A stretch of DNA of 49,728 nucleotides, taken from contig CAZRKY010000001.1 in assembly GCA_964600375.1 (NCBI GenBank), positions 1 to 49,728 on the forward strand. Reading direction: 5' to 3'. Position numbers and translations under genes: made by a program. The notes beneath the pieces were generated by a model. It worked only from the letters and a program-made list of their open reading frames with translations, searched no databases and had not been told where the DNA came from. The DNA comes from an uncultured Caulobacteraceae bacterium. Lineage in GTDB: Bacteria > Pseudomonadota > Alphaproteobacteria > Caulobacterales > Caulobacteraceae. Positions 22,243-40,054 of the stretch are shown piece after piece (position 1 is the stretch's first letter; each line of letters begins with the position of its first letter).

Positions 22243-22273
22243 CGACGGCGTGAACGACTTGTGTGGGCGTGTG

Positions 22274-22414
22274 CCTTCTCCCCTTGCGGGAGAAGGTGGG
22301 TCTCGAAGAGACCCGGATGAGGGGTGCTGACGCATGGCTGGCAAGCGTCGCGCCGACACCCCTCACCCGACCAGGCAAGCCGGCCCACCCTCTCCCTCAA
22401 GGGGAGAGGGGAGG
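22274..22414. repeat. inverted pair of short GC-rich hairpin repeats (alphaproteobacterial REP-like element)
   Basis: Left copy CCTTCTCCCCTTGCGGGAGAAGG...TGAGGGGTG (22274-22326). Right copy CACCCCTCA...CCCTCTCCCTCAAGGGGAGAGGG (22357-22414). Each copy contains a 9-bp stem hairpin. Confidence 0.7.
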
Positions 22415-24484
22415 CTTCTGCGCAGACTTCGCGACAGCTCGATCCTTGTGCGCAGGATAACCTTCGCCGCCGGCGGCCTGCTGGCCTGTCAGGTGCTGCT
22501 GGCGGCGGTCGACCTCGCCCTGCCGCCGGACATGGGCCGGGCCGAGCGGTCCTCGCCCGTGGCGCTGGACCGGCACGGCGCCTGGCTGCGCGCCCTGCCG
22601 GTGGAGAACGGCCGCTGGCGGATCCGGGCCGACCTGGCGCGCACCGACCGGACGTTCCTGAAGCGGCTCGTCGCGGTCGAGGACGAGCGGTTCTACTGGC
22701 ACTTCGGGGTCGACCCGGTCTCGATGATCCGCGCGCTGGTCGGCAATGCGCGGGCCGGCGAGATCACCTCGGGCGGCTCGACCATCACCATGCAGACGGT
22801 GCGCCTGCTGGAGCCGCGGCCCCGCAACCTCGGCTCCAAGCTCATCGAGATCATCCGCGCCGCCCAGCTGGAGGCGCGCCTCAGCAAGCGCGAGATCCTG
22901 GCGCTGTACCTGACGCTGGCCCCCTACGGCGGCAATCTGGAAGGGGTGCGGGCGGCCTCCCTCAGCTGGTTCGGCCATGAGCCGGAAAGCCTGACCACCG
23001 GCGAGCAGGCGCTGCTCATCGCCTTGCCGCAGTCGCCCGAGTCCCGCCGCCCGGACCGCCGCCCGAAGATCGCCGCCGCCGCCCGCGATGCGGTGCTGGA
23101 ACGCATGCGGCGAGCCGGCCTGATCGATGACTTCATCGTCGCCGAGGCCTCCAGCGAGCCGCTACCGACCGCGCGCGCAGCGTTCCCGCGCCTGGCCTGG
23201 CACGCGGCCGGAAGGCTGGCCGCAGCCGCGCCCCTGAGCCAGGCCACGGTGCACACCACCCTCGACGCCGGCCTGCAGGCGCGGCTGGAGGAGTTCGCCC
23301 GCGACGCCGCCCGCACCCAGGGACCGGAATCGACCGTGGCCATCGTGGTGGTTGACCTGAAGACGCGCGGCGTACTGGCCTCGGTGGGCTCCGGCGGGCT
23401 GGACCGGCCGGGCGGCTGGGTGGACATGACGCGGGCGCTGCGCTCGCCCGGGTCGGCGCTGAAGCCCTTTGTCTACGCCATGGCCTTCGATCAGGGCATC
23501 GCCGCGCCCGACACCCTGGTGCAGGACGCCGCCATGCGCTTCGGCGACTACCAGCCGGAGAACTTCGACCACATGTTCCACGGGCAGGTGACGGCCCGCG
23601 AGGCGTTGATGCACTCGCTGAACGTGCCGGCGGTGGCCATGCTGGCCCGCATCGGGCCGGAGGCCTTCGCCGCGCGGCTGGAATCGACGGGGATTCGGCT
23701 GGTGCGCCCGCGCATCCGCGACCGGGCCGCGGGCCTGGCGCTGGCGCTGGGCGGGGCGGGGATCACGATCCAGGATCTGGCGGTGCTCTATGCGGCGCTG
23801 GGGGACGAAGGGTTGGCCAAGCCGCTGGCCTGGACCCTGGCGGAGGCCGAGAAGCGCCAGCGCGCGCACGGGGTGCGGCTGGTGCGCGCCGAGGCGGCGT
23901 CGCAGGTGCTCGACATCCTGCGCGACACCCCGCCGCCGCGGGGCCGCGCGCCGGGCGCCCTGATGTCGCGCGGGCCGCGCATCGCCTGGAAGACCGGCAC
24001 CTCCTACGGTTTTCGCGACGCGCTGGCGGCGGGCGTCGGCGGGGGCAAGGTGGTGGTCGTCTGGACCGGCCGCGCCGACGGCGGGGCCCGGGGCGGCCTG
24101 ACCGGGCGCGATGCGGCCGCGCCCATGCTGTTCGATGTCTTCGACGTGTTGGATGCGCCGACCCGGGCGCCCCCGCCGGTGGCCCCGCGCGGCGCGCCCT
24201 CGGCGCTCACCACTCTGCGAGACCAGGCTGAAGGGCCGGTGATGATCTTCCCGCCCGATGGCGCCGTGGTGCAGGTCGAGGCCGCCGGGGACGCCAGTCG
24301 CGGCCTGGTGCTGGCCGCCCGCGGCGAGAACCTGACCTGGTACGTCGACGGCCTGCCGCTGGAGGCCGATCCGATCTCGGGCCGGGTGGTGTGGCGACCG
24401 CGCACGCCTGGCTTCTATCGCCTGGCGGTAGTCGACGCCCAGGGCCGCGAGGCGTCGTCGAAGGTACGGGTGCGGACGCCCTAG
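22334..24484 (+). CDS. pbpC: penicillin-binding protein 1C
   Basis: GT51 motifs (EDERFYWHFG, GGSTITMQ), SxxK (SALKPF) and a PbpC-type C-terminal beta domain. The start is uncertain because the ATG at 22334 reads through the repeat element. An in-frame GTG at 22448 lies just before the TM helix. Confidence 0.88.
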   Translation: MAGKRRADTPHPTRQAGPPSPSRGEGRLLRRLRDSSILVRRITFAAGGLLACQVLLAAVDLALPPDMGRAERSSPVALDRHGAWLRALPVENGRWRIRADLARTDRTFLKRLVAVEDERFYWHFGVDPVSMIRALVGNARAGEITSGGSTITMQTVRLLEPRPRNLGSKLIEIIRAAQLEARLSKREILALYLTLAPYGGNLEGVRAASLSWFGHEPESLTTGEQALLIALPQSPESRRPDRRPKIAAAARDAVLERMRRAGLIDDFIVAEASSEPLPTARAAFPRLAWHAAGRLAAAAPLSQATVHTTLDAGLQARLEEFARDAARTQGPESTVAIVVVDLKTRGVLASVGSGGLDRPGGWVDMTRALRSPGSALKPFVYAMAFDQGIAAPDTLVQDAAMRFGDYQPENFDHMFHGQVTAREALMHSLNVPAVAMLARIGPEAFAARLESTGIRLVRPRIRDRAAGLALALGGAGITIQDLAVLYAALGDEGLAKPLAWTLAEAEKRQRAHGVRLVRAEAASQVLDILRDTPPPRGRAPGALMSRGPRIAWKTGTSYGFRDALAAGVGGGKVVVVWTGRADGGARGGLTGRDAAAPMLFDVFDVLDAPTRAPPPVAPRGAPSALTTLRDQAEGPVMIFPPDGAVVQVEAAGDASRGLVLAARGENLTWYVDGLPLEADPISGRVVWRPRTPGFYRLAVVDAQGREASSKVRVRTP

Positions 24485-26447: not shown

Positions 26448-26472
26448 AACGATCAGGCCGCCTCGGAGTTCC
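26448..26472 (-). promoter_or_regulatory. EcfG/SigT-type promoter GGAAC-N16-CGTT for the entericidin-like gene
   Basis: The plus strand shows AACG (26448-26451), N16, GTTCC (26468-26472). Most of the motif lies inside the last codons of phyK. Confidence 0.7.
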
Positions 26473-28192
26473 CGTTCTCCACGGCCTCTTGCGCGCTGAG
26501 ATCCGGCGTCGGGAAGGTGAGGCGCGCGACAAGGCCGCCGTTCGGCCCCTTCACCACCTCGGAGTGGCCCCTCAGCTGGCGCGCGAAGGCCGTCATCAGC
26601 GTGCGGCCAACGCCGCCGCGCACGTCATCCTGCTCCATCAGGATGCCGGGCCCGTCGTCCTCGACTTCCAGGGTCGTGTCGGCCTCGGCCACCTTGAAGC
26701 GAACCCTCAGTGTGCCGCCCCGGTCGTTGAAGGCGTGTTTCTGGGCGTTGGTGATGGCCTCGACGGCCCAGAGCGCCAGGGGCGCCAGCTTGTCCGGGTC
26801 AATGACCAGGTCATCCACATCCAGCTCGGTGCGCACCAGCGGCCCCCGGCCCAGGTCCCCCTGCAGCAGCTGGGCGATGAGCTCTTCGAGGAATTGGCGC
26901 ACGTCGGCGCGGCGCAGGTCAGGGCTCTGGTAGAGCGCCCGGTAGATGAGGGCCAGGGCGGTTATCCGCTGGCGCGTGTCGCTCATCGCCGCCCGGGCGG
27001 CCGGATCGGTCAGAGACCGCTGCTGCATGTTGAGCAGGCTGGAGATGACCTGCAGGTTGTTCTTCACCCGGTGGTGGATCTCGCGCATCAGCGCGTCCTT
27101 GTGGGCGATGCTCTCGTGCAGGGAGTGGTCGCGCGCGTCGATGGCGTCGGCCATCTGGTCGAGCGTGATGGCCAGGGTGCGGATCTCAAGCGGGGCATTG
27201 CGCGCCTGCACCGGACGGACGGTGAAACGGCCCTTGGCGTAGACCCGCGCGATCCGGTCCAGATAGCCCAGCCAGCGGATCACCACCCGCTCGGTCACCA
27301 CCAGCACCGCGACGACCGCGAACAACCAGGCCAGGATGGGCAGGATCAGGCTGACGAACGGGTTCAGTCGCGCCCAGCTGAACAGGCCCTGGGCCGGCGC
27401 GGACAGCAACACGAAGACGTCCTGGCCTACCAGCGGCGCGCCGGCATAGACGTGCGTCCGGCCGGACGTGTCACGCCCGTAGAAGAGCGCCGATCCATCG
27501 TCGTCGGCCTGGGCGGTCCAGTGCCGAGGCACGCCGCGGAAAGCTTCCATATCCGTTGCGGTCAGGATCGAGCCGGAGGCGTCGATGATCGCGACCTCTG
27601 AATTGTCCGGCATGTCCCTGTCGCCGGCCACCGGGCGCAGGGCTGACAGGGGAATGACCGCCAGGAAGGCGCCGTCAAAGGCCCCGTTCGCCCGCTCCGA
27701 GCGAATGGCGGCGATGAGCGCGGGCTCGGGACCGAACACGCCGCTGGGCGCGCGGGTGACGGTCAGGCCGGCGCCGTCCTTCAGACGATCGAACCAATCC
27801 CCGGCCGCCCCGACCCGGCTATAGGCCACCGGCGCGCTGGAGCAGAGAAGCTTGCCGTTCGCACCGAAGCGCACCAGCGCATCCAGTCCGGCGACGCGTC
27901 CGGCGAGGCCGCCGAGGCGATCCTGACAGGTGGGACCGGTCGATTCCGGCCCCAGGGCGTCGAGCAGCACCACCGCGCCGTCGATGCGCGCGCGAGCGCT
28001 GGCCGCGCTGCGCTCGGCGCCCAGCAGCAGGTCCGATCGCTGGTGCTGGGCCTCCCGCTTGAACGCTTCAGCCGACTGGAGTCCGCTCAGCGCCAGCACC
28101 GGCAAGAGAGCCAGCGACAGCGCCATGAACAGGCGGAATCGAATGGTCTGGAGCCTGCGTCCGCGCGCCGGTCGCGGTCCGAGCAGCCTCAC
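26453..28192 (-). CDS. phyK: HisKA_2/HWE-type sensor histidine kinase, PhyK-like (GSR kinase)
   Basis: 579 aa with a GTG start preceded by GAGGTGA. Two TM helices flank a periplasmic domain. H-box HHRVKNNLQVISSLLNMQ. Starts 8 nt downstream of sigT, as in the Caulobacter nepR-sigT-phyK operon. Confidence 0.82.
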   Translation of the reverse strand: MRLLGPRPARGRRLQTIRFRLFMALSLALLPVLALSGLQSAEAFKREAQHQRSDLLLGAERSAASARARIDGAVVLLDALGPESTGPTCQDRLGGLAGRVAGLDALVRFGANGKLLCSSAPVAYSRVGAAGDWFDRLKDGAGLTVTRAPSGVFGPEPALIAAIRSERANGAFDGAFLAVIPLSALRPVAGDRDMPDNSEVAIIDASGSILTATDMEAFRGVPRHWTAQADDDGSALFYGRDTSGRTHVYAGAPLVGQDVFVLLSAPAQGLFSWARLNPFVSLILPILAWLFAVVAVLVVTERVVIRWLGYLDRIARVYAKGRFTVRPVQARNAPLEIRTLAITLDQMADAIDARDHSLHESIAHKDALMREIHHRVKNNLQVISSLLNMQQRSLTDPAARAAMSDTRQRITALALIYRALYQSPDLRRADVRQFLEELIAQLLQGDLGRGPLVRTELDVDDLVIDPDKLAPLALWAVEAITNAQKHAFNDRGGTLRVRFKVAEADTTLEVEDDGPGILMEQDDVRGGVGRTLMTAFARQLRGHSEVVKGPNGGLVARLTFPTPDLSAQEAVENGNSEAA

Positions 28193-28199
28193 GGCCGGA

Positions 28200-28784
28200 T
28201 CACCTCGCGCCGCTTAGACGGTCCGCATCGGCGAGGATCGAGCCCATCGCCTCCCCGGCCGGGGTTCCGTCGCGCTCATAGGCGCCGGCTTCCAGCGAGG
28301 CCTGCACGGCCCGCCGGGCGCGACTGACTCGCGATTTCACAGTGCCCACGGCGCACCCGCAGATTTCGGCGGCTTCCTCGTAGGCAAATCCGCCGGCGCC
28401 GACCAGGACCAGGGCTTCCCGCTGTTCGTCGGGCAGGGTCTTCAGCGCCTGGCGCAGTTCGTCCAGGGCGAGTGGGGCGGACGGGTCGTCGATGGCCATC
28501 AGGGTGCGTTCGGCGGCCTCCTGATCGAGTTGGGTCTGGCGCCAGGACCGGCGCTTCTCCGAGTAGAACTGGTTGCGCAGGATCATGAAGGTCCAGGCCT
28601 TCATGTTGGTGCCCATCTGGTAGCTGGCCCGCGCGTCCCAGGCCTTCAGCATCGCGTCCTGGGCCAGGTCGTCGGCCGCGGTGGCGTTGCCGCACAGCGT
28701 GCGCGCAAAGGCGCGCAGGTGCGGGATCAGGGTCACCAGCTCCTTGCGGAAGCGTTCGTCGTCTGTGGAGGCCTGGCCTGCCAT
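28200..28784 (-). CDS. sigT: ECF sigma factor, EcfG family (general stress response sigma)
   Basis: 194 aa with sigma-70 regions 2 and 4 (DDLAQDAMLKAW, EAAEICGCAVGTVKSRVSRAR). Start overlaps the nepR stop. Context with nepR and phyR. Confidence 0.9.
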   Translation of the reverse strand: MAGQASTDDERFRKELVTLIPHLRAFARTLCGNATAADDLAQDAMLKAWDARASYQMGTNMKAWTFMILRNQFYSEKRRSWRQTQLDQEAAERTLMAIDDPSAPLALDELRQALKTLPDEQREALVLVGAGGFAYEEAAEICGCAVGTVKSRVSRARRAVQASLEAGAYERDGTPAGEAMGSILADADRLSGAR

Positions 28785-28993
28785 CAGGACCCGCCCTTCG
28801 ACTTGTCGTCGGCGCGGCGGAGGATGTCGAGGAAGTCGTCAGGCACTGGTTCGTTCACCACCTGATCGAACATCTGGCGCAGCTTCACGCCGATGGCCTG
28901 CTGCCGAAGCCGAGCCTCGTCGAGCGCCTGATCGTCTCGCTCCGGCGCGGGGCGTGGGGATTCGCTGTGATCAATCATGACTTTACGGCGCAT
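28784..28993 (-). CDS. nepR: anti-sigma factor NepR
   Basis: 69 aa. Conserved NepR core (LRQMFDQVVNEPVPDDFLDILRRAD). Alternative start at 28978. Confidence 0.85.
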   Translation of the reverse strand: MRRKVMIDHSESPRPAPERDDQALDEARLRQQAIGVKLRQMFDQVVNEPVPDDFLDILRRADDKSKGGS

Positions 28994-29071
28994 GGGACGC
29001 GCGCCGTCTTTCCGAAAGCGTGTGATTTCATAATATTACGCGCCGCCCCCTGGCTTGCTTGACCCGCGACT

Positions 29072-29097
29072 AACGCAGTCCCCGTCCTTACGGTTCC
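29072..29097 (-). promoter_or_regulatory. EcfG/SigT-type promoter GGAAC-N17-CGTT for nepR-sigT-phyK (autoregulation)
   Basis: The plus strand shows AACG (29072-29075), N17, GTTCC (29093-29097), about 80 bp upstream of the nepR ATG. Confidence 0.75.
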
Positions 29098-29138
29098 CCG
29101 GCAAGCCAAAATAAAGTGAAGCTTGCCCGGATTCGAGC

Positions 29139-29163
29139 GGAACCATAACGCTCTGACCTCATT
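29139..29163 (+). promoter_or_regulatory. imperfect EcfG-type promoter GGAAC-N16-CATT upstream of phyR
   Basis: GGAAC at 29139-29143 and CATT at 29160-29163, one mismatch in the -10 element. Orientation and distance to phyR are correct. Confidence 0.45.
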
Positions 29164-29248
29164 ATGATGTTCGGCAGGGGCGCGCACGCGCATGCGCCCC
29201 GCCATGATTTTTAGTCAGCACTGCAACTTGCGTGTCGGGGAAATGAAC

Positions 29249-30046
29249 ATGGGTCTTCTGGCCAGACTGGCGCCGCATCTGCCTTACGTCCGCCGCTATG
29301 CGCGGGCGCTCACCGGTGATCAGAAAACCGGCGACAACTACGTCCGCGTGGCGCTGGAGGCCCTGGCCGCCGGCGAGCGCAGCCTGGACGAGGGCCTTTC
29401 GCCGCGGGTGTCGCTCTACCACGTGTTCCACGCCATCTGGTGCTCCACCGGCGCCCAGCTGGAAAGCGAAGACACTGGGCTCGGCGCCCCCGACGAGGCG
29501 GCCCGCCGCTTGATGCGGATCGCCCCCCGGTCGCGCCAGGCCTTCCTGCTCACCGCGCTTGAGGGCTTCACCCCCTCTGAGGCCGCCCAGATCCTCGGCG
29601 GCGACGTCACCGAAGTCGAGCAGCTGATCGGCGAGGCCCAGGCCGAAATCGATGCCGAACTGGCGACCGACGTGCTGATCATCGAGGACGAACCGGTCAT
29701 CGCCTCCGATATCGAGGCCCTGGTCCGCGAGCTCGGCCACACGGTCATCGATGTGGCCGCCACCCACAACGAGGCCATCGACTCGGTCGCGCGCAAGCGG
29801 CCCGGCCTTGTGCTGGCGGATATCCAGCTGGCCGACGGCTCCTCGGGCATCGACGCGGTGAAGGACATCCTGACCAAGTTCGACGTGCCGGTGATCTTCA
29901 TCACGGCCTTCCCCGAGCGCCTGCTGACCGGCGAGCGTCCCGAGCCGACCTTCTTGATCACCAAGCCCTTCCAGCCCGAAACGGTGAAGGCGGCGATCGG
30001 CCAGGCGCTCTTCTTCCACCCGGTCCGCACCCGCGAAGCGGCCTAG
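29249..30046 (+). CDS. phyR: anti-anti-sigma response regulator PhyR (sigma-like domain + receiver)
   Basis: N-terminus MGLLARLAPHLPYVRRYARALTGDQ, typical of PhyR. C-terminal receiver (VLIIEDEP...LADIQLADGSSG...). Alternative ATG at 29243. Confidence 0.92.
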   Translation: MGLLARLAPHLPYVRRYARALTGDQKTGDNYVRVALEALAAGERSLDEGLSPRVSLYHVFHAIWCSTGAQLESEDTGLGAPDEAARRLMRIAPRSRQAFLLTALEGFTPSEAAQILGGDVTEVEQLIGEAQAEIDAELATDVLIIEDEPVIASDIEALVRELGHTVIDVAATHNEAIDSVARKRPGLVLADIQLADGSSGIDAVKDILTKFDVPVIFITAFPERLLTGERPEPTFLITKPFQPETVKAAIGQALFFHPVRTREAA

Positions 30047-30071
30047 CGACCCTGAACGGCCCCGACCCTTG

Positions 30072-30108
30072 GTCCTCCGGCTCTCGTGAGCCGGAGGACT
30101 TTCTTTTG
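30072..30108 (+). terminator. intrinsic terminator after phyR
   Basis: GTCCTCCGGCTC-TCGT-GAGCCGGAGGAC followed by TTTCTTTTG. Confidence 0.8.
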
Positions 30109-30112
30109 CGCG

Positions 30113-30391
30113 CTAGGAGCCGGACCGCTGCCGGATCGGCGGATCGGCCGGGGTGTTGAAGTCAGACGCCTCGGCGGCCTGGGCCTGCGGACTGTCCTCG
30201 GTGGCGGCGAACGGGCCCATGTGCAGGCCCCACACGACCAGGAAGGCGGCGACCACCAGGACCAGGGAGGTGGCCAGGATCCAGACGACGTGGGTGCCAC
30301 GGCGGCCCTGACGCACGTACTGGGCCTCGACGGGCCGGCCTTCATGCACGGCGTCGGCGGCCTGGGAATGGGGATCGAGAGCCTGGGTCAT
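30113..30391 (-). CDS. small single-pass membrane protein (hypothetical, GSR-associated)
   Basis: 92 aa from the ATG at 30391, preceded by the strong SD GAGGAGAA. One TM helix (VVWILATSLVLVVAAFLVVWGL). Has its own EcfG-type promoter. Confidence 0.7.
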   Translation of the reverse strand: MTQALDPHSQAADAVHEGRPVEAQYVRQGRRGTHVVWILATSLVLVVAAFLVVWGLHMGPFAATEDSPQAQAAEASDFNTPADPPIRQRSGS

Positions 30392-30420
30392 CGCTTTTCT
30401 CCTCTTCGTGCGAAGAGGGG

Positions 30421-30445
30421 AACGAACGTGGGGCGGGGCCGTTCC
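30421..30445 (-). promoter_or_regulatory. EcfG/SigT-type promoter GGAAC-N16-CGTT for the small membrane protein
   Basis: Reverse complement of 30421-30445 is GGAAC GGCCCCGCCCCACGTT CGTT. The -10 element lies about 30 nt upstream of the ATG. Confidence 0.7.
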
Positions 30446-30503
30446 CGCCGAACCCTTGTGGAACAAGGGGTTCGCGCCGACAGAAAAAAATTGCGACTTT
30501 TCC

Positions 30504-30528
30504 GGAACCCATGCGCCCGGCTGCCGTT
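30504..30528 (+). promoter_or_regulatory. EcfG/SigT-type promoter GGAAC-N16-CGTT driving a non-coding transcript
   Basis: GGAAC at 30504-30508, N16, CGTT at 30525-30528. No ORF follows before the terminator at about 30621-30655. Confidence 0.75.
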
Positions 30529-30534
30529 TACATG

Positions 30535-30650
30535 ATGCGGAGGCGGTGACGCCCCCCCCGACTTGAGACTGGCCTAGCCAGTCTACCGTCTCCGCACCTT
30601 ATTCTCGATGATGCGACTTCGGCGGGCTCCCCAGGGAGCCCGCCTTTTCG
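30535..30650 (+). ncRNA. gsrN: SigT-dependent small RNA, GsrN-like (C-rich unpaired region + intrinsic terminator)
   Basis: Promoter-to-terminator unit of about 115 nt. Outer stem 30538-30548 / 30585-30595 encloses an unpaired C8 tract (30552-30559) and the hairpin AGACTGG/CCAGTCT (30566-30584). Terminator stem GGCGGGCTCC/GGAGCCCGCC plus TTTTCGTTGTT. The ends are estimates. Confidence 0.65.
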
Positions 30651-30666
30651 TTGTTCGCGTGGGCTG

Positions 30667-31125
30667 TCAGCGCGGCGTGACGGTCAGGAACACTTCCGCG
30701 CGGCGACGGACGGGGTCGTCCTGGCCCTGGGCCGTCGTGGCCCCGGCTTCGCCGTTTGCGTCGATTTCGAAGGACGGCGCGGGAAGGCCCTGTTGCCGAA
30801 GGGCGCCGGCCACGGCGACGGCGCGTTGCTGCGACAGGGTCAGGTTGGCCTGGGAGCCGCCGGTGGCGTCGGAAAGCCCCACCACCCTGGCCCGGGTGAT
30901 GTTGCAGTCCCTGAGCGCGCGCCCGGTCTCCTGGATCAATTGTCCGGCCGGCCGGGTGAGGCGATTGGAATTCTCGCTGAAATAGACCGTGAACTGGGTG
31001 TCCACACAGGCGCTTTCGGTGCGGACCAGGTCTGAACGCGTCCGCACCAGGTGTCCGCACCCGGCCGCCGACACGCCGAAACCCACCACCACGACCGCCA
31101 GAACCGCTACCGCCGACTTGCTCAT
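30667..31125 (-). CDS. OmpA/MotB C-terminal domain lipoprotein
   Basis: 152 aa from the ATG at 31125 (SD GGAGGG). Signal peptide with lipobox SAAGC. OmpA-like segment (TVYFSENSNRL...NLTLSQQRAVAVAGAL...RRAEVF). Confidence 0.8.
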   Translation of the reverse strand: MSKSAVAVLAVVVVGFGVSAAGCGHLVRTRSDLVRTESACVDTQFTVYFSENSNRLTRPAGQLIQETGRALRDCNITRARVVGLSDATGGSQANLTLSQQRAVAVAGALRQQGLPAPSFEIDANGEAGATTAQGQDDPVRRRAEVFLTVTPR

Positions 31126-31263
31126 CGCACCCTCCATGGCAAAGCTTGCTTGCCCCCTGATAGCGCGTGGCGGCGAATTTTGTTCATTTTCTGTGGAACC
31201 CGCATTCGCGTGACGGGCGAGAGCGCTGGAAAGCCCTGTGGCTTTCGGGACCTATGCCAATCC

Positions 31264-31278
31264 TTAACCGTGCGTTAA
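31264..31278. promoter_or_regulatory. TTAA-N7-TTAA (CtrA-box-like) site
   Basis: TTAACCGTGCGTTAA read directly, about 76 bp upstream of the ATG at 31354. Confidence 0.35.
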
Positions 31279-31353
31279 TCTTGATGATGAGTACGGGACC
31301 GGCGCTCGCCCTGGAGGTGGGGCGGCCGGCAGGGGTTCAAGGAGAGGGTCACC

Positions 31354-31818
31354 ATGCGTTTTCCACAAGCGGCGCACATGCCGGACGACGGCCACGGACA
31401 CGGCCACGGCCATGACGATCACGGCCACAGCGCGCCTGCAGCCGCCACCAGCTCAAGCGCCGTGGATGCGCCGGTCTGGGCGCGTCGCCAAGGCCGCAGC
31501 GGCGGGGGCGCCGGCATTTTCGGCATCCTGTTCTTCCTCCTGGCCATCTTCGGCATCCTGTCGATCGCGCTAGCGGTCATGGACAAGTCGTTCGCCGCGG
31601 GCGGCGCCCGTATCGATGGCTGGATCAAGCCGGCCGTTGACCAGATCGCCAAGATGACCGGCAAGGCCGGCGCCAAGGCCGAGGACGCCGCCGGTGACGC
31701 CGCCGCCGCCGCGGGCGACGCGGCCGAAGCCGCCGGCGACGCCGCGGAATCTGCCGGCGACGCCGCCCAGGAAGCCACGGCCCCGGCCGCCGCGCCTGCC
31801 GCTCCGGCCAAGAAATAG
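31354..31818 (+). CDS. hypothetical membrane protein with His-rich N-terminus and Ala/Asp heptad-repeat C-terminus
   Basis: 154 aa, SD AAGGAGAG. N-terminal DDGHGHGHGHDDHGH, one TM helix (IFGILFFLLAIFGILSIALAV), and a C-terminal (A)GDAAxxA x4 repeat. Confidence 0.7.
   Translation: MRFPQAAHMPDDGHGHGHGHDDHGHSAPAAATSSSAVDAPVWARRQGRSGGGAGIFGILFFLLAIFGILSIALAVMDKSFAAGGARIDGWIKPAVDQIAKMTGKAGAKAEDAAGDAAAAAGDAAEAAGDAAESAGDAAQEATAPAAAPAAPAKK
31687..31770 (+). repeat. in-frame 21-bp imperfect tandem repeat x4 (GDAAxxA heptads)
   Basis: GG(T/C)GAC starts at 31693, 31714, 31735 and 31756. Confidence 0.8.
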
Positions 31819-31857
31819 GGCTTCGGCCGGCCTTTTTGGCCGTCTGCAAGCTTGACA

Positions 31858-31882
31858 GGAACCGGCGCCCCGCGCGCACGTT
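31858..31882 (+). promoter_or_regulatory. EcfG/SigT-type promoter GGAAC-N16-CGTT for the lipid-kinase/phosphoesterase operon
   Basis: GGAAC at 31858-31862 and CGTT at 31879-31882. The ATG at 31891 is only 8 nt past the -10 element, which implies a leaderless or near-leaderless mRNA. Confidence 0.65.
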
Positions 31883-31890
31883 CGGTCGTG

Positions 31891-32835
31891 ATGACTGATG
31901 CGGGCGGGGCCCTTCCAACCTTGAAACTGACGCCGCACGCGCGACTCGAGCGCGTGGAGGTCGTCATCAATCCTGCGTCCGGCGGCGTGGGCCCGACGGC
32001 TGCGGCCGAATGTGAGGCCCTGTGCAAGGCCTTCGACGGCGCCGACTGGAACCTGGTCGAGGTCCAGCCCGGCGGTGTGGACAAGGCCGTCCAGGACGCC
32101 GTGGACGCCAAGCCCGACCTTGTGATCATCCTGGCCGGCGACGGCACGGCTCGCGCCGCCGCCACCCTGGCCGGTCCGCACGGCCCCATGGTCGCGCCGC
32201 TGCCCGGCGGCACCATGAACATGCTGCCCAAGGCCCTCTACGGGACCGCCGACTGGAAGGCGGCCCTGAACCTCGCCCTGACGGAGGGCGTCGAGCGCCC
32301 GGTAGCGGGCGGCGAGGTCGACGGCATCAGCTTCTTCTGCGCCGCCATCCTGGGCGCGCCCGCCCTGTGGGCCCCGGCGCGGGAGGCCGTTCGCTCCGGC
32401 GCTCCCCGTCTGGCCTGGCTCTACGCCAAGCGGGCGCTGCGCCGCGCCTTCGCCGGCCATATCCGTTTCCAGCTCGACAACGGGGTGGTCTGCAAGGGCG
32501 AGGCGCTGGCGCTCATCACCCCCCTGATCTCCCGGGCGCTGGAAACCCCGTCGGGCCTGGAATCGGCGGTGATGAACCTGTCGGGCGCCAGCGAGGCCTT
32601 CCGTCTGGCGGCCACCGCGCTGTTCTCGGACTGGCGCAGCGACCCGTCTGTCGAGACCAAGGTGGTGCGCCACGCCGTCGCCTGGGCCCACCACGAGATG
32701 CCGGCCATCCTCGACGGGGAGAGCGTCCACCTGGGCAAGCGCGCGACCGTGACCTTCGTCCCCTGCGCGTTCCGCACCCTGGCGCCGAAGGTCGCCAACT
32801 CCGCCATTTCCCTCGCCCCTGAGGCCCAGGGCTGA
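31891..32835 (+). CDS. diacylglycerol/lipid kinase family protein (DAGK_cat, YegS/BmrU-like)
   Basis: 314 aa from the ATG at 31891. Motifs VVINPASGG, AGDGT and PGGTMN. The track start (TTG at 31852) lies upstream of the predicted promoter. Confidence 0.78.
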   Translation: MTDAGGALPTLKLTPHARLERVEVVINPASGGVGPTAAAECEALCKAFDGADWNLVEVQPGGVDKAVQDAVDAKPDLVIILAGDGTARAAATLAGPHGPMVAPLPGGTMNMLPKALYGTADWKAALNLALTEGVERPVAGGEVDGISFFCAAILGAPALWAPAREAVRSGAPRLAWLYAKRALRRAFAGHIRFQLDNGVVCKGEALALITPLISRALETPSGLESAVMNLSGASEAFRLAATALFSDWRSDPSVETKVVRHAVAWAHHEMPAILDGESVHLGKRATVTFVPCAFRTLAPKVANSAISLAPEAQG

Positions 32836-33665
32836 TGGGTCGAATCTTTCACTTCTCGGACGTCCACTTCGGGGCCGAACACAAGGCCGCGGTCGCCGCG
32901 GCCCTGGCCCATGCCCATGCCAATGAGCGCGATCTGGTCCTGATCACTGGCGACATCACGCAGCAGGGCTACCGCCGGGAGTTCGCCGCCGCGGCAGAGT
33001 GGATCGCCGCCATGCCCGAGCCGGTGTTCGTGGTCACCGGCAACCACGACGTGCCCTACTGGGATCCGTTCGCGCGCGTCTTCGCGCCCTGGAAGCGGTT
33101 CGAGCACTACGTGGGGGTCCCCGCCTTCGACCACCAGTTCGACGCGCCGGGGCTATCGGTGCGGGGGGTCAACACCGCCCGCGGCTGGCAGATGCGCACC
33201 AACTGGTCCAAGGGCGTCATCGACCTCGACCAGACCCGCCGCGCCGCCTACGCCCTGGCCAATGCGCCCGAGGGGGCGCTCAAGATCCTGGCCTGCCACC
33301 ATCCGCTGATCGAGATGATCGGCGCGCCGATGAGCGGCGAGGTGATCCGTGGTCAAGCGGCGGCGAAGATCTTCACCGATTGCGGCGTGGATCTGATCAT
33401 GACCGGTCACGTCCATGTCCCGTTCGCCCTGCCGATCACCATGGGCGACAAGTGCTCCTACGGCGTGGGCGCCGGGACCCTCTCCATGCGTGAGCGCGGC
33501 ATGCCGCCCGGCTTCAACTGCGTCGAATGGGATGACGCCACGGTGACGGTCACCGCGCTGGGCTGGGCCGGGTCGCACTTCGAGTCCCAGAGAACCTGGC
33601 ATCTGGAGCGGCGGACAACGACGAAAGCCGCGGCGTTGCGAGCCGCGGCTTCCATTCCGTCCTAG
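32835..33665 (+). CDS. metallophosphoesterase (calcineurin-like)
   Basis: 276 aa. Motifs HFSDVHFG, GDITQ, GNHD and GHVH. Start overlaps the upstream stop (TGATG). Confidence 0.88.
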   Translation: MGRIFHFSDVHFGAEHKAAVAAALAHAHANERDLVLITGDITQQGYRREFAAAAEWIAAMPEPVFVVTGNHDVPYWDPFARVFAPWKRFEHYVGVPAFDHQFDAPGLSVRGVNTARGWQMRTNWSKGVIDLDQTRRAAYALANAPEGALKILACHHPLIEMIGAPMSGEVIRGQAAAKIFTDCGVDLIMTGHVHVPFALPITMGDKCSYGVGAGTLSMRERGMPPGFNCVEWDDATVTVTALGWAGSHFESQRTWHLERRTTTKAAALRAAASIPS

Positions 33666-33678
33666 GCGACGCGGGCCG

Positions 33679-33855
33679 CTAGACCCGGGTGCCGCGACCC
33701 CTGAACGCGCCCGCGATCAGCGAAACCACGAACAGCACGATAAAGACGAAGAACAGGATCTTGGCGATGTCCATGGACACGCCGGCCACGCCGCCGAAGC
33801 CGAGGAAGGCGGCGATCAGCGCGACAATCAAGAAACCCAAGGCCCAGCGAAGCAT
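33679..33855 (-). CDS. DUF1328 (YtjA-like) small membrane protein
   Basis: Not in the ORF track (58 aa). My translation is [66 protein letters not shown], with its own EcfG-type promoter. Confidence 0.8.
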
Positions 33856-33905
33856 GTCGTATCTCCTGAAAGTTACGGCCCTGCGGCGGGCCGTTCGGAG
33901 ATAAC

Positions 33906-33930
33906 AACGTTGGCGGAGGCCCTGCGTTCC
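33906..33930 (-). promoter_or_regulatory. EcfG/SigT-type promoter GGAAC-N16-CGTT for the DUF1328 gene
   Basis: The plus strand shows AACG (33906-33909), N16, GTTCC (33926-33930). It starts 3 nt after the stop codon of the upstream membrane-protein gene. Confidence 0.72.
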
Positions 33931-33933
33931 GGC

Positions 33934-34335
33934 CTAGCGACGGCGCTTGGGACCTTCGTCCGAGGGCGCGCCGCTGAGGGCGGCGGCGACGATGGTGGCG
34001 AGCGCCGGGTTGCGCAGGAAGATGAAGCCCGCGGCCAGCCCCGCCGCGGTCGCCGCGATGGGGCGCTCCTTGGCGAAGCCGATCAACCGGTGGGTCAGGC
34101 TCTCAGGCTCCGGCTCCGGCGCCGAGCGGAACATCGGCTTGCCGAAGGCCAGCAGGCCTACGATGCCGGCCCCGACCGCCATGATCGCGGCGAGCACGAG
34201 CGCCGCTCCCCAGTTCGGCAGGACCTGGACAAGGCCGTACCAGGCGGCGCTGCCCAGGGCCGTGACGCAGAGGATCACAGCCGTCGCGATCGCCGCGATG
34301 GCTGCGACCTTCGCCGCGATGCGACCTCCGATCAA
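33934..34335 (-). CDS. small multi-TM membrane protein (YqjE / holin-X-like, tentative)
   Basis: 133 aa and hydrophobic. TTG start overlaps the TGA of the DUF883 gene (TTGA). The family assignment rests on synteny with the DUF883 gene, as in yqjD-yqjE. Confidence 0.55.
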   Translation of the reverse strand: MIGGRIAAKVAAIAAIATAVILCVTALGSAAWYGLVQVLPNWGAALVLAAIMAVGAGIVGLLAFGKPMFRSAPEPEPESLTHRLIGFAKERPIAATAAGLAAGFIFLRNPALATIVAAALSGAPSDEGPKRRR

Positions 34336-34613
34336 CGGCGGCCGCCCGCCAGCAGCATGCCGATGACCACGCCGATTCCGACGGCGGTCAGGGTCGAGAC
34401 GATGGGCTTCTCCTGGACGCGCTCGGTGACGTAGCGCTGGGCGGTCTCGAGCTGGTCGGAGGCTTCGTCGTAGTACTCGCGGGCCCGCTCGCGGAATTCG
34501 CCGGCGCGTTCGCGCACGGCCTGTTCGGCGCGCAGGGCGAACTCGCGGACGCGGCGTTCTTCTTCGCTCAGGCCGTTGGCGCGGTCAGCGGCGGCTTTGG
34601 ATTGGGCGGCCAT
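34332..34613 (-). CDS. DUF883 (ElaB/YqjD/YgaM) membrane-anchored stress protein
   Basis: 93 aa, SD AGGAGAAG. Charged helical N-terminus and a C-terminal anchor (TLTAVGIGVVIGMLLAGGRR). Confidence 0.85.
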   Translation of the reverse strand: MAAQSKAAADRANGLSEEERRVREFALRAEQAVRERAGEFRERAREYYDEASDQLETAQRYVTERVQEKPIVSTLTAVGIGVVIGMLLAGGRR

Positions 34614-34658
34614 GGTAGCTTCTCCTGGAATTGGGTGCGAAGGCAGCCCCGACGCGTC

Positions 34659-34683
34659 AACGCGCCGCGACCGCCACCGTTCC
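34659..34683 (-). promoter_or_regulatory. EcfG/SigT-type promoter GGAAC-N16-CGTT for the DUF883 operon
   Basis: The plus strand shows AACG (34659-34662), N16, GTTCC (34679-34683), about 46 bp upstream of the ATG at 34613. Confidence 0.72.
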
Positions 34684-34810: not shown

Positions 34811-35446
34811 ATGAGCCTCCTCCTGCACGGCTACTGGCGCTCCGGGACCTCCTACCGCACCCGCATCGCGCTGAACCTCAAGGGCCTCGACTACGACCAG
34901 CTGGGCGTCGACCTGCGCGCCGGCGACCAGCGGTCCGACGCCTTCCTGGCGCTCAATCCTCAAGGCCTGGTCCCCGCCCTCGAACACGACGGCGGTGTGC
35001 TGACCCAGAGCCCGGCCATAATCGAATGGCTGGACGAGCGGTGGCCCGAGCCGCCGCTGCTGCCCCGCGATCCCGACGCCCGCGCCACGGTGCGCGCCAT
35101 GGCGGCGATCATCGGCTGTGACATCCACCCCCTGAACAACCTGCGGGTCCTCAAGGCGATCCGCGAACTGGGCGCCGACGAGCCCGGGACCAATGCCTGG
35201 GCGGGCCGCTGGATCGCCGCGGGATTCGACGCGCTGGAGGCGATGATCGCCCGCCACGGCGACGGCTGGGCCCATGGGGCCGCGCCGGGGCTGGTGGAAT
35301 GCTACCTGATCCCGCAGGTCTATTCGGCGCGCCGCTTTGCCGTCGACCTCTCCCCCTGGCCGCTGATCGGCGCCATAGACCGGCGCGCCGCCGAACACTC
35401 CGCCATCGCGGCGGCCCACCCTGACCTGCAGCCGGACGCCGACTGA
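34811..35446 (+). CDS. maiA: maleylacetoacetate isomerase (zeta-class GST)
   Basis: 211 aa from the ATG at 34811: MSLLLHGYWRSGTSYRTRIALNLKGLDY..., the GST zeta signature. Confidence 0.85.
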   Translation: MSLLLHGYWRSGTSYRTRIALNLKGLDYDQLGVDLRAGDQRSDAFLALNPQGLVPALEHDGGVLTQSPAIIEWLDERWPEPPLLPRDPDARATVRAMAAIIGCDIHPLNNLRVLKAIRELGADEPGTNAWAGRWIAAGFDALEAMIARHGDGWAHGAAPGLVECYLIPQVYSARRFAVDLSPWPLIGAIDRRAAEHSAIAAAHPDLQPDAD

Positions 35447-36072
35447 TGCTGGATGAGCTGAAACGCCGCAATCGCGACTGGGCCGCCTCCAAGACCCTGG
35501 TCGACCCTGAGTTCTTCGCCCGCCTGGTCAGCCAGCAGGCCCCCGACTACCTCTGGATCGGCTGTTCCGACAGCCGGGTTCCGGCCAACGAGATCGTCGG
35601 GCTGGATCCCGGCGAGATGTTCGTCCACCGCAACGTCGCCAACCTGGCCCCGCCCCAGGACGCGAACTACCTCTCGGTGCTGCAGTACGCGCTCGAGGTG
35701 CTCGGCATCGAGCATGTGCTGGTGGTGGGGCACTACGGCTGCGGGGGCGTGCGGGCGGCGGTGGAGAGCACCGACCACGGGCTCATCGATCACTGGCTCT
35801 CGCCCGTGCGCGAGACCGCCCATGACCACCGCGACGAATTGGCGGCCATCGGCGGGGACGCGCGGCTGGACCGGCTTTGCGAGCTGAACGTGATGCGCCA
35901 GGTCCGCAACGTCGCCTCCAACCCCTTCGTCACCAAGGCGTGGAAGGACGGCCGCAAGCTGTGCGTGCACGGCTGGGTCTATTCCCTCGCCGACGGTCTG
36001 GTCCACGATCTGAACGTCACGGTCGGCGGGCCGGACGATTTCCAGCGCCACTTCGAAAACCAGCCCTGCTAG
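35446..36072 (+). CDS. can: beta-class carbonic anhydrase
   Basis: 208 aa with motifs CSDSR and HYGCGG. Start overlaps the maiA stop. Confidence 0.9.
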   Translation: MLDELKRRNRDWAASKTLVDPEFFARLVSQQAPDYLWIGCSDSRVPANEIVGLDPGEMFVHRNVANLAPPQDANYLSVLQYALEVLGIEHVLVVGHYGCGGVRAAVESTDHGLIDHWLSPVRETAHDHRDELAAIGGDARLDRLCELNVMRQVRNVASNPFVTKAWKDGRKLCVHGWVYSLADGLVHDLNVTVGGPDDFQRHFENQPC

Positions 36073-37306: not shown

Positions 37307-38220
37307 TCCGCACCGCAGACCTTGGACTGGGTGCGGCCCAGTTCGGACTCGACTACGGCGTGTCAAACGCCCGCGGCCGCGTTCCGGAGGACGAGGTCCG
37401 CCTCATCCTCGACACCGCCGCGGCCAACCAGGTCGGTTTCGTCGACACCGCTCCGGCCTATGGCGATTCCGAGCGGGTCCTGGGCCAGAGCTGGCCTTTC
37501 CCGAGCCCCTTCCGGGTGGTCACCAAGACGGTGGCGATCGGCGAGGGCCTGGACCGGGTCGAGACCCGCGCCCGCCGCTCGCTGGAGAAGATGGGCCTGT
37601 CGCGCGGCCACGCCCTGCTGGTGCATTCCGCCGAGGACCTGCTGGGTCCCGACGGTCCGGCGCTATGGGACCGCCTTCAGGGGCTGAAGGACGAGGGCCT
37701 GTTCCAGAAGATCGGCGTCTCCTGCTACGGATCGGACGAGCCGGTGCACCTGGCCCGACGTTTCCGGCCGGACCTGATCCAGCTGCCCTGTTCGCTGCTC
37801 GACCAGCGCCCGGATCGGGACGGGACCCTGCGGTCGCTCGCGGACCTGGGGGTCGAGATCCACCTGCGCTCGATCTTCCTGCAGGGCCTGCTGTTCCTCG
37901 ACCGCGACCAGCTGCCCCCGGCCCTCTCCGACGCCGGCCCGCGCCTGTCGCGCATTCGCCGGGCGCTCGCCGAAGCGGGCGCCGATCCGTTGCAGGCGGC
38001 GCTGGCCTACGCCCAGACCCGGCCCGGGGCCGCTGCCGTGATCCTGGGCGTAACCTCGGCGGCCGAGCTGCGCGCCATCCTGGCCGCCGCGGCCACGCCC
38101 GTGCCCGACCTCGACTGGGCGGCCCTGGCGCTCGATCACCCGGTTGCGCTGGATCCCCGGCGCTGGACCGAGGCGCCGGCGCCCCGGTCCAACGTTACCC
38201 GGCTCAGTAGCGCAGCCTGA
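37303..38220 (+). CDS. aldo/keto reductase family oxidoreductase
   Basis: 305 aa. AKR N-terminal pattern (LGLGAAQFG...FVDTAPAYGDSE). Start overlaps the upstream stop (ATGA). Confidence 0.85.
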   Translation: MIRTADLGLGAAQFGLDYGVSNARGRVPEDEVRLILDTAAANQVGFVDTAPAYGDSERVLGQSWPFPSPFRVVTKTVAIGEGLDRVETRARRSLEKMGLSRGHALLVHSAEDLLGPDGPALWDRLQGLKDEGLFQKIGVSCYGSDEPVHLARRFRPDLIQLPCSLLDQRPDRDGTLRSLADLGVEIHLRSIFLQGLLFLDRDQLPPALSDAGPRLSRIRRALAEAGADPLQAALAYAQTRPGAAAVILGVTSAAELRAILAAAATPVPDLDWAALALDHPVALDPRRWTEAPAPRSNVTRLSSAA

Positions 38221-40054
38221 TCCCGGCGTAGGCCGAGCGCCCCGGCTGGCCGTAGCCGGCCGCCTCCTGGTAGTGGGCGTCGGTCAGGTTCTCGATCCGC
38301 GCCGTCAGCTTCACCCGCGCTGTCAGGGCATAGCCCGCCGCCAGGTCTACGGTGGCGAAGCCCGGCCGCTCGCCGGTCCCGAACCCGATCACGTCGCGCT
38401 GTTCGCTCTCGGCGCGGAGGGTGAGCGCCCCGTCCAGACGCTCGCCCGCCCAGAACAGGCTGACCGACCCGCTGTGCTCGGGCGCGCGCAACAGGCGCAG
38501 GCCGGTGGAATTATCGACCGCGTCGGTGAAGGCGTAGCCGGCCTTGACGCTGAACCCCGCCCCCAGGTCCGCCCGCAGGTCGGCCTCGACCCCGTCGGTC
38601 GAGGTCGAGGCGATGTTCTCGTAGTGGCCCCCGACGTAGGAAATCTGGTCGCTGACATCGAGGTGGTAGCCGGTGACCGAGGCCTCGAAGCGGCGCCCGG
38701 CCGAGCGCCAGCCCAGGGTCGCGTCCCAGCCTTCGGCGGTTTCCGGCGACAGGGCGACCGCGGGCGTGAAGCAGAAATCGCAGACGATCTGGCTGATGGT
38801 CGGGGTCTTGAACCCCTGGCCGAACGAGGCGGTGGCGCGCCAGCCCCTGCCCAGGTCGGCCATCAGCGACAGCCGCACGGTCGTCTCGCCGTCGAAGTCT
38901 TCGGGCGCGTCATGGCGCAGGCCCAGCGTCGCGCTCAGCCGGTCGTTGGGGCTGAAGCGGCCGACGGCGAACACCGAGGTCGTGGCCAGGGCCGCGTCGG
39001 TGAAGCTGGCGTCGCCCCGGATGCGCTCGTGCTCGACCCCGGCCACCAGGCCCCACGCCTCGCCGGCCTGATCATGCTCGGCCGTCCAGCGCCAGACCTG
39101 CCGATCGCCGGTGAAGGCGCCCGGGAAGCTGCCGAAGCTCTCGCGCGCGATGTCGTAGAGGCTGACGCTGAGACTGTGGGTCAGGCCCCAGGGACCGTCG
39201 ATGCGGGCGCGGGCGAAGCCCGACCAGGTCCGCGTCTCCGCCCGGTCGGCGGTGTCGACCAGCACATAGAGCGGCGGCGGGAAGCCGTCGGTCTCGATCC
39301 CGGCGGCGCTGTAGCGCAGGCGACCGTCCATTTCGATCGCCGGGGACAGGCGCGCCCGCCCGGCCACGCCCGCCGTCCAGGTCTCGAAGCCGTCCTCCTC
39401 GCGGGCGCCGTCGGCCTCGTCGGCCTGGGAGACGCCATCGGTGCGGAAGGCCGAGACAAAGGCCGAAACCGCGTGATCGGGCCCCCGGGCCCCAACCGAG
39501 ACGAACCCGCGCAGGGTGGCGAACGATCCGCCCTCGACGGTCGCCGACAGCCCCTCGGCCTCGCGGGTGGTGAAGCTGATCACCCCGCCGATGGCGGCCG
39601 AGCCCCACAGCGAGCCCTGGGGTCCCGACAGGATCTCGATGCGCTCGACCTGGGCCAGGTCCAGGCTGGAGAAGTCATAGGCCCCCGATGGCGTGGCGGG
39701 GTCGTTCATGGGCACGCCGTCGATCAGCACCAGGGTCTTGTCGGTCGAGGCGCCGCGGATCCGCACCGAGGTAAGGCCCCCGAACGCACCTTCGGAATAG
39801 AGCCCCAGGCCCGGCACGGTGTTGAGCACGTCAGCGGCGAAGCTCGCCTGCAGCGCCTCGATCTGGTCGGCGGAGATCACCCGCAGGCCCGGCGCGTCGG
39901 CGGGGGTGGTGGGCAGGCGGCCGACGGTGATCACCGCCTCCTCGACCTCCGTCGGGTCGTCGGCCAGGGCCGCGCCGGCGGGCAGCAGCATCGCCGCCGT
40001 CAGGGCGGCTAACAGGGCGTGGGGGCAGGCTGAAGCCGGTGGTCGAAAGCGCAT
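38204..40054 (-). CDS. btuB: TonB-dependent receptor, BtuB-like (cobalamin/corrinoid uptake)
   Basis: 616 aa with a signal peptide, a plug domain and a C-terminal aromatic residue (...AGIRLRY). A cobalamin riboswitch lies in the 5' leader. Confidence 0.88.
   Translation of the reverse strand: MRFRPPASACPHALLAALTAAMLLPAGAALADDPTEVEEAVITVGRLPTTPADAPGLRVISADQIEALQASFAADVLNTVPGLGLYSEGAFGGLTSVRIRGASTDKTLVLIDGVPMNDPATPSGAYDFSSLDLAQVERIEILSGPQGSLWGSAAIGGVISFTTREAEGLSATVEGGSFATLRGFVSVGARGPDHAVSAFVSAFRTDGVSQADEADGAREEDGFETWTAGVAGRARLSPAIEMDGRLRYSAAGIETDGFPPPLYVLVDTADRAETRTWSGFARARIDGPWGLTHSLSVSLYDIARESFGSFPGAFTGDRQVWRWTAEHDQAGEAWGLVAGVEHERIRGDASFTDAALATTSVFAVGRFSPNDRLSATLGLRHDAPEDFDGETTVRLSLMADLGRGWRATASFGQGFKTPTISQIVCDFCFTPAVALSPETAEGWDATLGWRSAGRRFEASVTGYHLDVSDQISYVGGHYENIASTSTDGVEADLRADLGAGFSVKAGYAFTDAVDNSTGLRLLRAPEHSGSVSLFWAGERLDGALTLRAESEQRDVIGFGTGERPGFATVDLAAGYALTARVKLTARIENLTDAHYQEAAGYGQPGRSAYAGIRLRY

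Follow-up and report, generated by a model that had tools for sequence, protein, structure and literature searches.

The window analysed here, a stretch of 49,728 nt from an uncultured Caulobacteraceae bacterium (assembly GCA_964600375.1, contig CAZRKY010000001.1, positions 1 to 49,728), carries on its forward strand, at 30537..30653, what is almost certainly an orthologue of gsrN, the small RNA (sRNA) gene of the general stress response (GSR) in Caulobacteraceae (Rfam RF01529 'CC3552'; ccna_R0081 in Caulobacter crescentus). Family membership, the promoter motif, a secondary structure backed by covariation and conserved synteny are directly supported. The gene is an ordinary copy of an already described family in its published typical context: the description of the family, with its promoter and structure, its usual site beside phyR and its mode of action, dates from 2018, and Rfam has an entry for it, so that no new question is opened here. 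The case does illustrate that a GSR-linked sRNA is recognisable by reading the sequence alone, it adds an annotated gsrN in one more Caulobacteraceae genome, and for practical use it provides a 59-sequence alignment with clear covariation support for the published secondary structure.

Family membership and resemblance to C. crescentus GsrN

A first-pass annotation, drawn up from the letters of the window and its open reading frames (ORFs), had proposed a GsrN-like, SigT/EcfG-driven sRNA beside phyR, to be checked with a covariance model for GsrN and by comparison with Caulobacter gsrN. Both checks were positive, and the proposal is borne out by a full-length family match and by the alignment to C. 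crescentus gsrN. The whole window was scanned against Rfam 15 at gathering thresholds, yielding three matches in total, one of them to RF01529 at 30539-30643 (+) with 90.3 bits, the gathering score being 50 (E = 2.3e-13, all 106 model positions covered). When the same model was applied to homologous loci on Caulobacter, Brevundimonas and Phenylobacterium contigs, 10/10 were matched with 67-103 bits, a range that includes the score of the window. A covariance model of our own, R1, matched 30537-30653 with 111.7 bits, and neither this model nor the Rfam scan found a second gsrN copy in the window. The equation of RF01529 with GsrN follows from the concordance of the sequences, from the mapping of the 'Landt probe (62-89)' onto GsrN and from the fact that ccna_R0081 is an sRNA of Landt et al. 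2008. Statements on the C. crescentus RNA here and below draw on PMC5869019 and bioRxiv 10.1101/344820; according to the former, Tien et al. 2018 gave the name gsrN to ccna_R0081, an sRNA that Landt et al. 2008 had detected first and that carries a consensus sigma-T site.

The elements of the gene and its upstream region, all on the plus strand, are as follows.

30484..30490 (+): A7 tract resembling an UP element, 13 nt upstream of the -35, with a putative function
30504..30528 (+): EcfG/SigT-type promoter GGAAC-N16-CGTT, with the -35 at 30504-30508 and the -10 at 30525-30528
30537..30653 (+): gsrN gene, start at 30537-30539 by homology, 3' end inside the T tail
30537..30547 (+): 5' arm of the outer stem (GCGGAGGCGGU), paired with 30585-30595 in the minimum free energy (MFE) and centroid folds
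30548..30565 (+): C-rich recognition loop GACG-C8-GACUUG, 18 unpaired nt with C8 at 30552-30559
30566..30584 (+): inner hairpin (AGACUGGC-CUA-GCCAGUCU), from fold and covariation
30585..30595 (+): 3' arm of the outer stem (ACCGUCUCCGC), from fold and covariation
30596..30620 (+): single-stranded linker, mostly unpaired in the fold, with the conserved motif UUCUCGAUGAUG (30602-30613)
30621..30655 (+): intrinsic terminator, a 10-bp GC stem (30621-30644) and the tail TTTTCGTTGTT, from the terminator scan

For comparison, C. crescentus gsrN with its promoter was taken from supplementary file 12 of PMC5869019, which contains gene blocks and GsrN-numbered probes including the one of Landt et al., and the 106-nt RNA was reconstructed from it. 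In a global alignment 82/117 positions are identical to the window (70%), rising to 48/61 (79%) in the 5' half. Both genes have a SigT/EcfG promoter with the same distance from the -10 to the start and an A tract upstream; both RNAs, of about 106-117 nt, have an outer stem around a single-stranded ACG-Cn-GACUUGAG loop, of which the core ACG-Cn-GACUUGAGACUGGC is shared, followed by an inner hairpin, a single-stranded linker containing UGAUG and an intrinsic terminator; and both genes have small membrane-protein, OmpA-like and DAGK genes as neighbours. The C tract, however, is 6 nt long in C. crescentus and 8 nt in the window, an A-U pair of the outer stem is replaced by G-C in a compensated manner, and the hairpin loop is GAAA there and CUA here. 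In C. crescentus gsrN also lies far from the GSR locus, whereas in the window it is found directly beside phyR. The predicted gsrN genes of Brevundimonas and Phenylobacterium (Tien et al. 2018, Fig. 9) belong to the same family and likewise stand downstream of phyR behind an EcfG site.

The 'GsrN-like' sRNAs of Rhizobiaceae, Brucella, Bradyrhizobium and Rhodopseudomonas resemble the RNA of the window in being EcfG-dependent, in their location beside ecfG, nepR or phyR and in an exposed 5' loop (Tien et al. 2018), but were proposed from position, promoter and transcriptome without detectable homology, while the RNA described here is a true homologue of GsrN in both sequence and structure. A wider group shares with GsrN the principle of a single-stranded C-rich loop directed against G-rich leaders, with unrelated sequence, promoter type and taxonomy, and is thus an analogy only. 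It includes the staphylococcal RNAIII and Rsa sRNAs and Salmonella CyaR, and Helicobacter RepG (Pernitzsch 2014) is reportedly a further case. For such RNAs PMC5869019 refers to Geissmann 2009, Papenfort 2008, Romilly 2014 and Sharma 2010.

Promoter, fold and covariation

Homologues were collected by scanning 185,579 species genomes for the pattern ACGCCC-N0-4-CCCGACTTGAG, which gave at least 120 loci; all homologue counts in this text are counts among the matches listed. The arm of the outer stem immediately upstream of the motif is present in 64 listed loci, labelled mostly as Caulobacter, Brevundimonas, Phenylobacterium or Caulobacteraceae, with a few broader or foreign labels of metagenome-assembled genomes (MAGs), and the remaining listed loci are bare pattern matches in unrelated phyla. 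Two of the foreign labels, a 'Parcubacteria group' MAG (L033) and an 'Alsobacter soli' MAG (L059), belong to contigs with a complete Caulobacteraceae-type GSR locus including gsrN and with PhyR 83-84% identical to that of the window; these contigs are probably mis-binned. The motif ACG-C(6-9)-GACUUGAG occurs in every listed homologue, an invariance that is given by construction, as the motif was also the search pattern. The length of the C tract does vary, and in 65 sequences C6 was found 5 times, C7 22 times, C8 36 times and C9 twice, the eight residues of the window thus being the commonest state. By its linker (CCUUAUUCUCGAUGAUGCGACU), the window is closest to two unclassified Caulobacteraceae MAGs, L088 and L105, and next to the Brevundimonas type. 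Among the nearest listed loci, PhyR identity to the window reaches 86-90% at best and kinase identity 68% (L105).

The promoter ahead of the sRNA is a perfect EcfG-type element, as the first-pass annotation had stated. Its -35 GGAAC is identical in 64/64 listed homologues, the spacer is 16 or 17 nt long (16 nt in the window), and the -10 always has the form nGTT (CGTT 34, TGTT 16, GGTT 10, AGTT 4) with an invariant GTT. From CGTT to the position homologous with nucleotide 1 of the Rfam and probe numbering there are 10 nt in the window, the same number as in C. crescentus gsrN. With the 64 sequences anchored on GGAAC, the sole other conserved upstream feature is an A-rich block, aAAAAaatt, kept in most of the sequences, that usually ends 12-15 nt before the -35; an A7 tract 12-13 nt upstream of GGAAC is common to the window and C. 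crescentus gsrN. The searched parts of the GsrN literature contain no mention of this tract, which could be an UP-like element boosting an ECF-sigma (extracytoplasmic function) promoter.

Transferring the mapped C. crescentus start by homology places the beginning of the predicted transcript at 30537-30539; it ends near 30648-30655 and is about 110-118 nt long, compared with roughly 115 nt in the first-pass annotation. The start is given as a range because, going by some primer names in the supplementary file of Tien et al., transcription would begin 2 nt earlier, at the G of GCGAAGG; this numbering of C. crescentus GsrN also agrees with the published cleavage site T54. RNAfold gives -60.3 kcal/mol for 30537-30655 (z = -6.6), and 0/200 shuffled sequences were equally stable. 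The fold largely reproduces what had been read from the sequence by eye, with an 11-bp outer stem that includes one G-U pair (30537-30547 with 30585-30595), an unpaired C8 tract at 30552-30559 and a 10-bp GC terminator with a T tail at 30621-30655. According to the base-pair probabilities the loop, including the C tract, is unpaired with a probability of about 0.7-0.99. In the terminator stem 9/10 pairs are G-C, and an independent terminator scan finds it with a TTTTCGTTGT tail. For the inner hairpin the earlier figure of 7 bp is backed by covariation, whereas RNAfold extends it to 8 bp. The linker motif UUCUCGAUGAUG is retained in most listed homologues and could serve as a second seed or as a site for Hfq or RNase E. 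Downstream of gsrN in a Phenylobacterium MAG (L038) we found a tandem duplicate of the terminator hairpin and tail (GGCGGACCTTCGGGTCCGCCCGATCTCTTGG), the copies being about 12 nt apart.

This structure is also backed by covariation in an alignment of 59 sequences (A1). The RNAalifold consensus is identical to the single-sequence fold, and 97.2% of its cells hold standard pairs, compared with 35-55% when the partners are slid by 1-3 columns. Compensatory changes on both sides occur at 15/26 base pairs, and 0/500 shuffles reach the observed values. All cells of the outer stem are paired (100%) and three of its pairs show double changes; the inner hairpin has compensatory changes at 6/7 consensus pairs with 99.8% of cells paired, and the terminator at 6/8. 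The C. vibrioides-type stem, found in five sequences of which two are from Phenylobacterium, has A-U in place of a G-C pair of the outer stem. The window itself contributes a compensated change found nowhere else in the alignment, a U-A pair at 30547/30585 that is C-G in the other 58 sequences. R1, the covariance model built from A1, separates the family clearly, with 55 sources scoring 75-133 bits and everything else, including the pattern matches in unrelated phyla, at 28 bits or less.

Genomic setting and competing explanations

The gene stands within a GSR locus whose members are listed here.

26453..28192 (-): HisKA_2/HWE-type sensor histidine kinase, PhyK-like (Pfam HisKA_2 1.1e-26, HWE_HK, HATPase_c)
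28200..28784 (-): ecfG/sigT, ECF sigma factor (Pfam Sigma70_r2/r4_2)
28784..28993 (-): nepR, in an operon with ecfG (Pfam NepR 2.3e-16)
29072-29097 (-): EcfG promoter of the nepR-ecfG operon (motif scan)
29192..30046 (+): phyR, anti-anti-sigma response regulator (Pfam PhyR_sigma2 1.4e-23, PhyR_sigma-like 4.3e-21, Response_reg), with translation probably starting at the ATG near 29246
30113..30391 (-): divergent small membrane-protein gene (ORF) with its own EcfG-type promoter at 30421-30445 (-)
30667..31137 (-): OmpA-family gene, probable lipoprotein, convergent with gsrN (Pfam OmpA E = 4.8e-13)
31852-32835 (+): DAGK-type kinase (gene map)

Both neighbours named in the first-pass annotation were thus recovered, phyR with PhyR_sigma2, PhyR_sigma-like and receiver domains and an end 491 nt upstream of gsrN, and the convergent OmpA-like gene. 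In exact-protein look-ups, neither the OmpA-like protein nor a 208-aa protein encoded at 35446-36072 gave a match. The stop codon of the latter had been placed about 15 nt from the terminator, which is approximately right; more exactly, 22 nt separate it (30667-30669) from the stem, and 11 nt from the point where the T tail ends. The gap had also been described as free of ORFs, and here the mechanical ORFs 30408-30566 (+) and 30608-30985 (+) do overlap it, although the one that starts at the linker ATG (30608) is not conserved.

In tblastn searches with the proteins of the window, the order kinase(-), ecfG(-), nepR(-), phyR(+), small membrane protein(-), gsrN(+), OmpA-like(-), DAGK(+) recurs in most sufficiently long loci. 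PhyR is encoded upstream of gsrN in 52/64 listed loci, the OmpA-like gene follows directly downstream on the opposite strand in 43, and a homologue of the small membrane protein lies between phyR and gsrN in 35, with an EcfG-type site upstream of that gene in 15/34. According to PMC5869019, gsrN homologues of Caulobacteraceae usually adjoin the GSR locus, with C. crescentus, where gsrN is far away, as an exception. In agreement with this exception, a Caulobacter-like MAG (L100) has no phyR or ecfG in the 3.4 kb upstream of gsrN; neither gene is found in a C. vibrioides MAG (L025) within the only about 0.9 kb available upstream, and both loci retain the small membrane-protein, OmpA-like and DAGK neighbours. 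The gsrN of L088 has no phyR or ecfG in 4.3 kb upstream, and that of a further locus, L008, has neither in the available upstream sequence and showed none of the usual neighbours. In an uncultured Caulobacter MAG (L020, gsrN at 6715-6833) the OmpA-like and DAGK genes are upstream and the small membrane-protein gene and phyR downstream, all flipped relative to gsrN, which indicates a local inversion of the sRNA gene alone.

As gsrN keeps its small membrane-protein, OmpA-like and DAGK neighbours even apart from phyR, a functional unit with the flanking EcfG-regulated envelope genes is conceivable. Convergent transcription across the shared hairpin, for instance, might couple the expression of GsrN and the OmpA-like protein. 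We regard it as unlikely that the joint reading of the A tract as an UP-like element, of such an envelope-gene unit, or of the linker motif as a second seed or Hfq or RNase E site will hold; the searched papers did not show these aspects as described, and the identity of the element as gsrN is unchanged by any of them.

Some observations weigh against the assignment to gsrN or limit its reach. Linker and terminator have diverged from C. crescentus GsrN, and resemblance in the 3' half is only moderate; that the RNA is transcribed in the organism of the window, depends on EcfG, is processed and binds Hfq is expected from homology to C. crescentus; and no catalase-peroxidase and no OsrP-like 332-aa glycine-zipper protein is present among the Pfam-scanned ORFs and the gene map, the window having been covered without a search aimed at them. 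In addition, if the transcript starts at 30539 instead of 30537, the full-length MFE structure changes to one in which some of the C tract is taken up by pairing with the 5' end. The outer stem is still favoured for this start by covariation and by the fold of the predicted 5' isoform, 30539-30596, in which both stem and open loop are retained (-27.1 kcal/mol, z = -3.6).

The divergent 3' half and the C tract of 8 instead of 6 nt are also what would speak for a different, undescribed EcfG-dependent sRNA resembling GsrN merely by its C-rich loop, the fallback considered in the first-pass annotation. That fallback is excluded by the Rfam match, the C. crescentus alignment and the shared promoter spacing and stem architecture, and we leave it hardly any probability: the covariance match is full-length and well over the family threshold, a continuous series of homologues connects the window to the C. 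vibrioides-type sequence, more members of the family have C8 than any other tract length (36/65), and the synteny is the same. It is very improbable that the element acts in cis, either as a shared or bidirectional terminator and 3' untranslated region of the OmpA-like gene or as an antisense regulator of its read-through transcripts. The stop codon of that gene is indeed only 22 nt from the terminator stem, no other obvious terminator serves it, and the pairing of the two genes persists in L025 and L100, where gsrN is not beside phyR. The minus-strand hairpin, however, is not followed by a T run, the best-conserved parts (promoter and C-rich loop) are remote from the OmpA-like gene and play no part in termination, and the C. 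crescentus RNA works in trans from an ectopic locus (PMC5869019); nor is there any conserved complementarity of the loop to the OmpA-like start region, as detailed below.

A small protein, encoded for example from the linker ATGATG (30608) or from the ATGATG at 30533, has in our judgement practically no chance of being the product, even though a mechanical ORF of 125 aa starts at 30608 and GATGATG is a conserved motif. Among homologues, the reading frames opened by the linker ATG have anything between 3 and >200 codons and encode unrelated peptides, eight homologues have no ATG there, and indels of 1-3 nt in the C tract and hairpin loops disrupt any frame. There is no upstream Shine-Dalgarno sequence, the ORF crosses the terminator and runs antisense to the OmpA-like gene, and changes follow compensatory base pairing, not codons. 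The coding reading of the linker ATGATG was rejected on the grounds that neither length nor sequence of the ORF is conserved. That the window holds a decayed or silent gsrN copy, its sequence kept and its function lost, has nothing specific in its favour and is extremely improbable in view of the perfect consensus promoter, the intact helices and the strong terminator; the outer-stem change specific to the window is compensated, and the copy is the only one present.

Proposed mode of action and further features of the window

For EcfG dependence, processing, Hfq involvement, targets and phenotype of the gsrN orthologue we draw on the work in C. crescentus. Under stress, phosphorylated PhyR would sequester NepR and free sigma-EcfG (SigT), which would then transcribe gsrN from the GGAAC-N16-CGTT promoter. 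The transcript of about 112-117 nt is predicted to fold such that the outer stem holds the GACG-C8-GACUUG loop single-stranded, followed by inner hairpin, linker and terminator, and the exposed loop would pair with G-rich mRNA leaders and alter their translation or stability. Hfq probably stabilises the RNA, and a cut near the 3' arm of the outer stem would leave a stable 5' half that bears the loop. In C. crescentus sigma-T directly activates gsrN, Hfq stabilises the RNA, which is about 100 nt long, and cleavage gives a stable 5' isoform of 51-54 nt (PMC5869019). The 3' arm at 30585-30595 corresponds to the cleavage region of C. crescentus GsrN (T54; PMC5869019), such that similar processing may be expected here. 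GsrN's 5' part is needed for peroxide and osmotic survival and suffices for peroxide survival, and its C-rich loop pairs with the first nucleotides of the katG mRNA and with the osrP leader, activating both; activation of KatG and OsrP leads to peroxide and osmotic protection (PMC5869019; bioRxiv 10.1101/344820).

Within the window, short complementarities to the loop are at chance level. Against the leaders of the eight EcfG sites, the loop gave duplex energies of -14 to -26 kcal/mol, which are raw values without an accessibility model or background. The best raw duplex, at -25.9 kcal/mol and including GGGGGCGGCG, is with the nepR-ecfG leader, 28994-29071 (-), and is a lead only; in C. crescentus sigT and nepR mRNAs are reported to co-purify with GsrN, with no evidence that they are regulated (PMC5869019). 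An 8-nt complement of the loop (CAAGTCGG) is found 17 nt into the adjacent OmpA-like coding sequence. It is probably due to chance since it is not conserved: the 43 homologous loci show only matches of 5-7 nt at scattered positions, and pairing of the GsrN loop with the OmpA-like mRNA was rejected.

The motif GGAAC-N16/17-CGTT occurs eight times in the window compared with 0.69 expected, a number reached in 0/100 dinucleotide-preserving shuffles. All eight motifs, representing seven distinct sites, lie inside 8.3 kb of the GSR locus (26448-34683), which looks like a compact island of the GSR regulon and is a possible regulon reference for this lineage. Besides the sites upstream of nepR-ecfG (29072-29097, -), the small membrane-protein gene (30421-30445, -) and gsrN, there is one at 26448-26472 (-), upstream of a major facilitator superfamily transporter and inside the 3' end of the kinase gene, one at 33906-33930 (-), upstream of an ORF of 58-81 aa, and one at 34659-34683 (-), upstream of a DUF883/glycine-zipper gene followed by a holin-like membrane protein. 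The site at 31858-31882 (+) falls just within the listed DAGK-type ORF, at its 5' end, so that this gene may in truth begin further downstream.

The EcfG site of the small membrane-protein gene (30419-30445) is palindromic (GGAACG...CGTTCC) and presents the consensus on both strands; as read on the plus strand, it would direct transcription toward gsrN, starting about 85 nt upstream of the main promoter. The interval between this site and the gsrN promoter contains an inverted repeat (30447-30477) with a fold z of only -1.6. In the leader of the small membrane-protein gene, 30392-30420 (-), a 7-bp hairpin, CCUCUUC-GCAC-GAAGAGG, includes part of the Shine-Dalgarno sequence GAGGAG (-10.6 kcal/mol, z = -2.6), and in this predicted fold it may mask the ribosome-binding site.

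Outside the GSR locus, a cobalamin riboswitch (RF00174, 86 bits) is present at 40207-40436 (-), directly upstream of a TonB-dependent receptor gene at 38204-40054 (-), which is an ordinary BtuB-type arrangement. A tRNA-Ser with anticodon GGA and a long variable arm is found at 41401-41490 (+). At 17218-24484 (+) a bacterial alpha-2-macroglobulin of 1674 aa is followed by a PBP1C-type penicillin-binding protein, a common gene pair.

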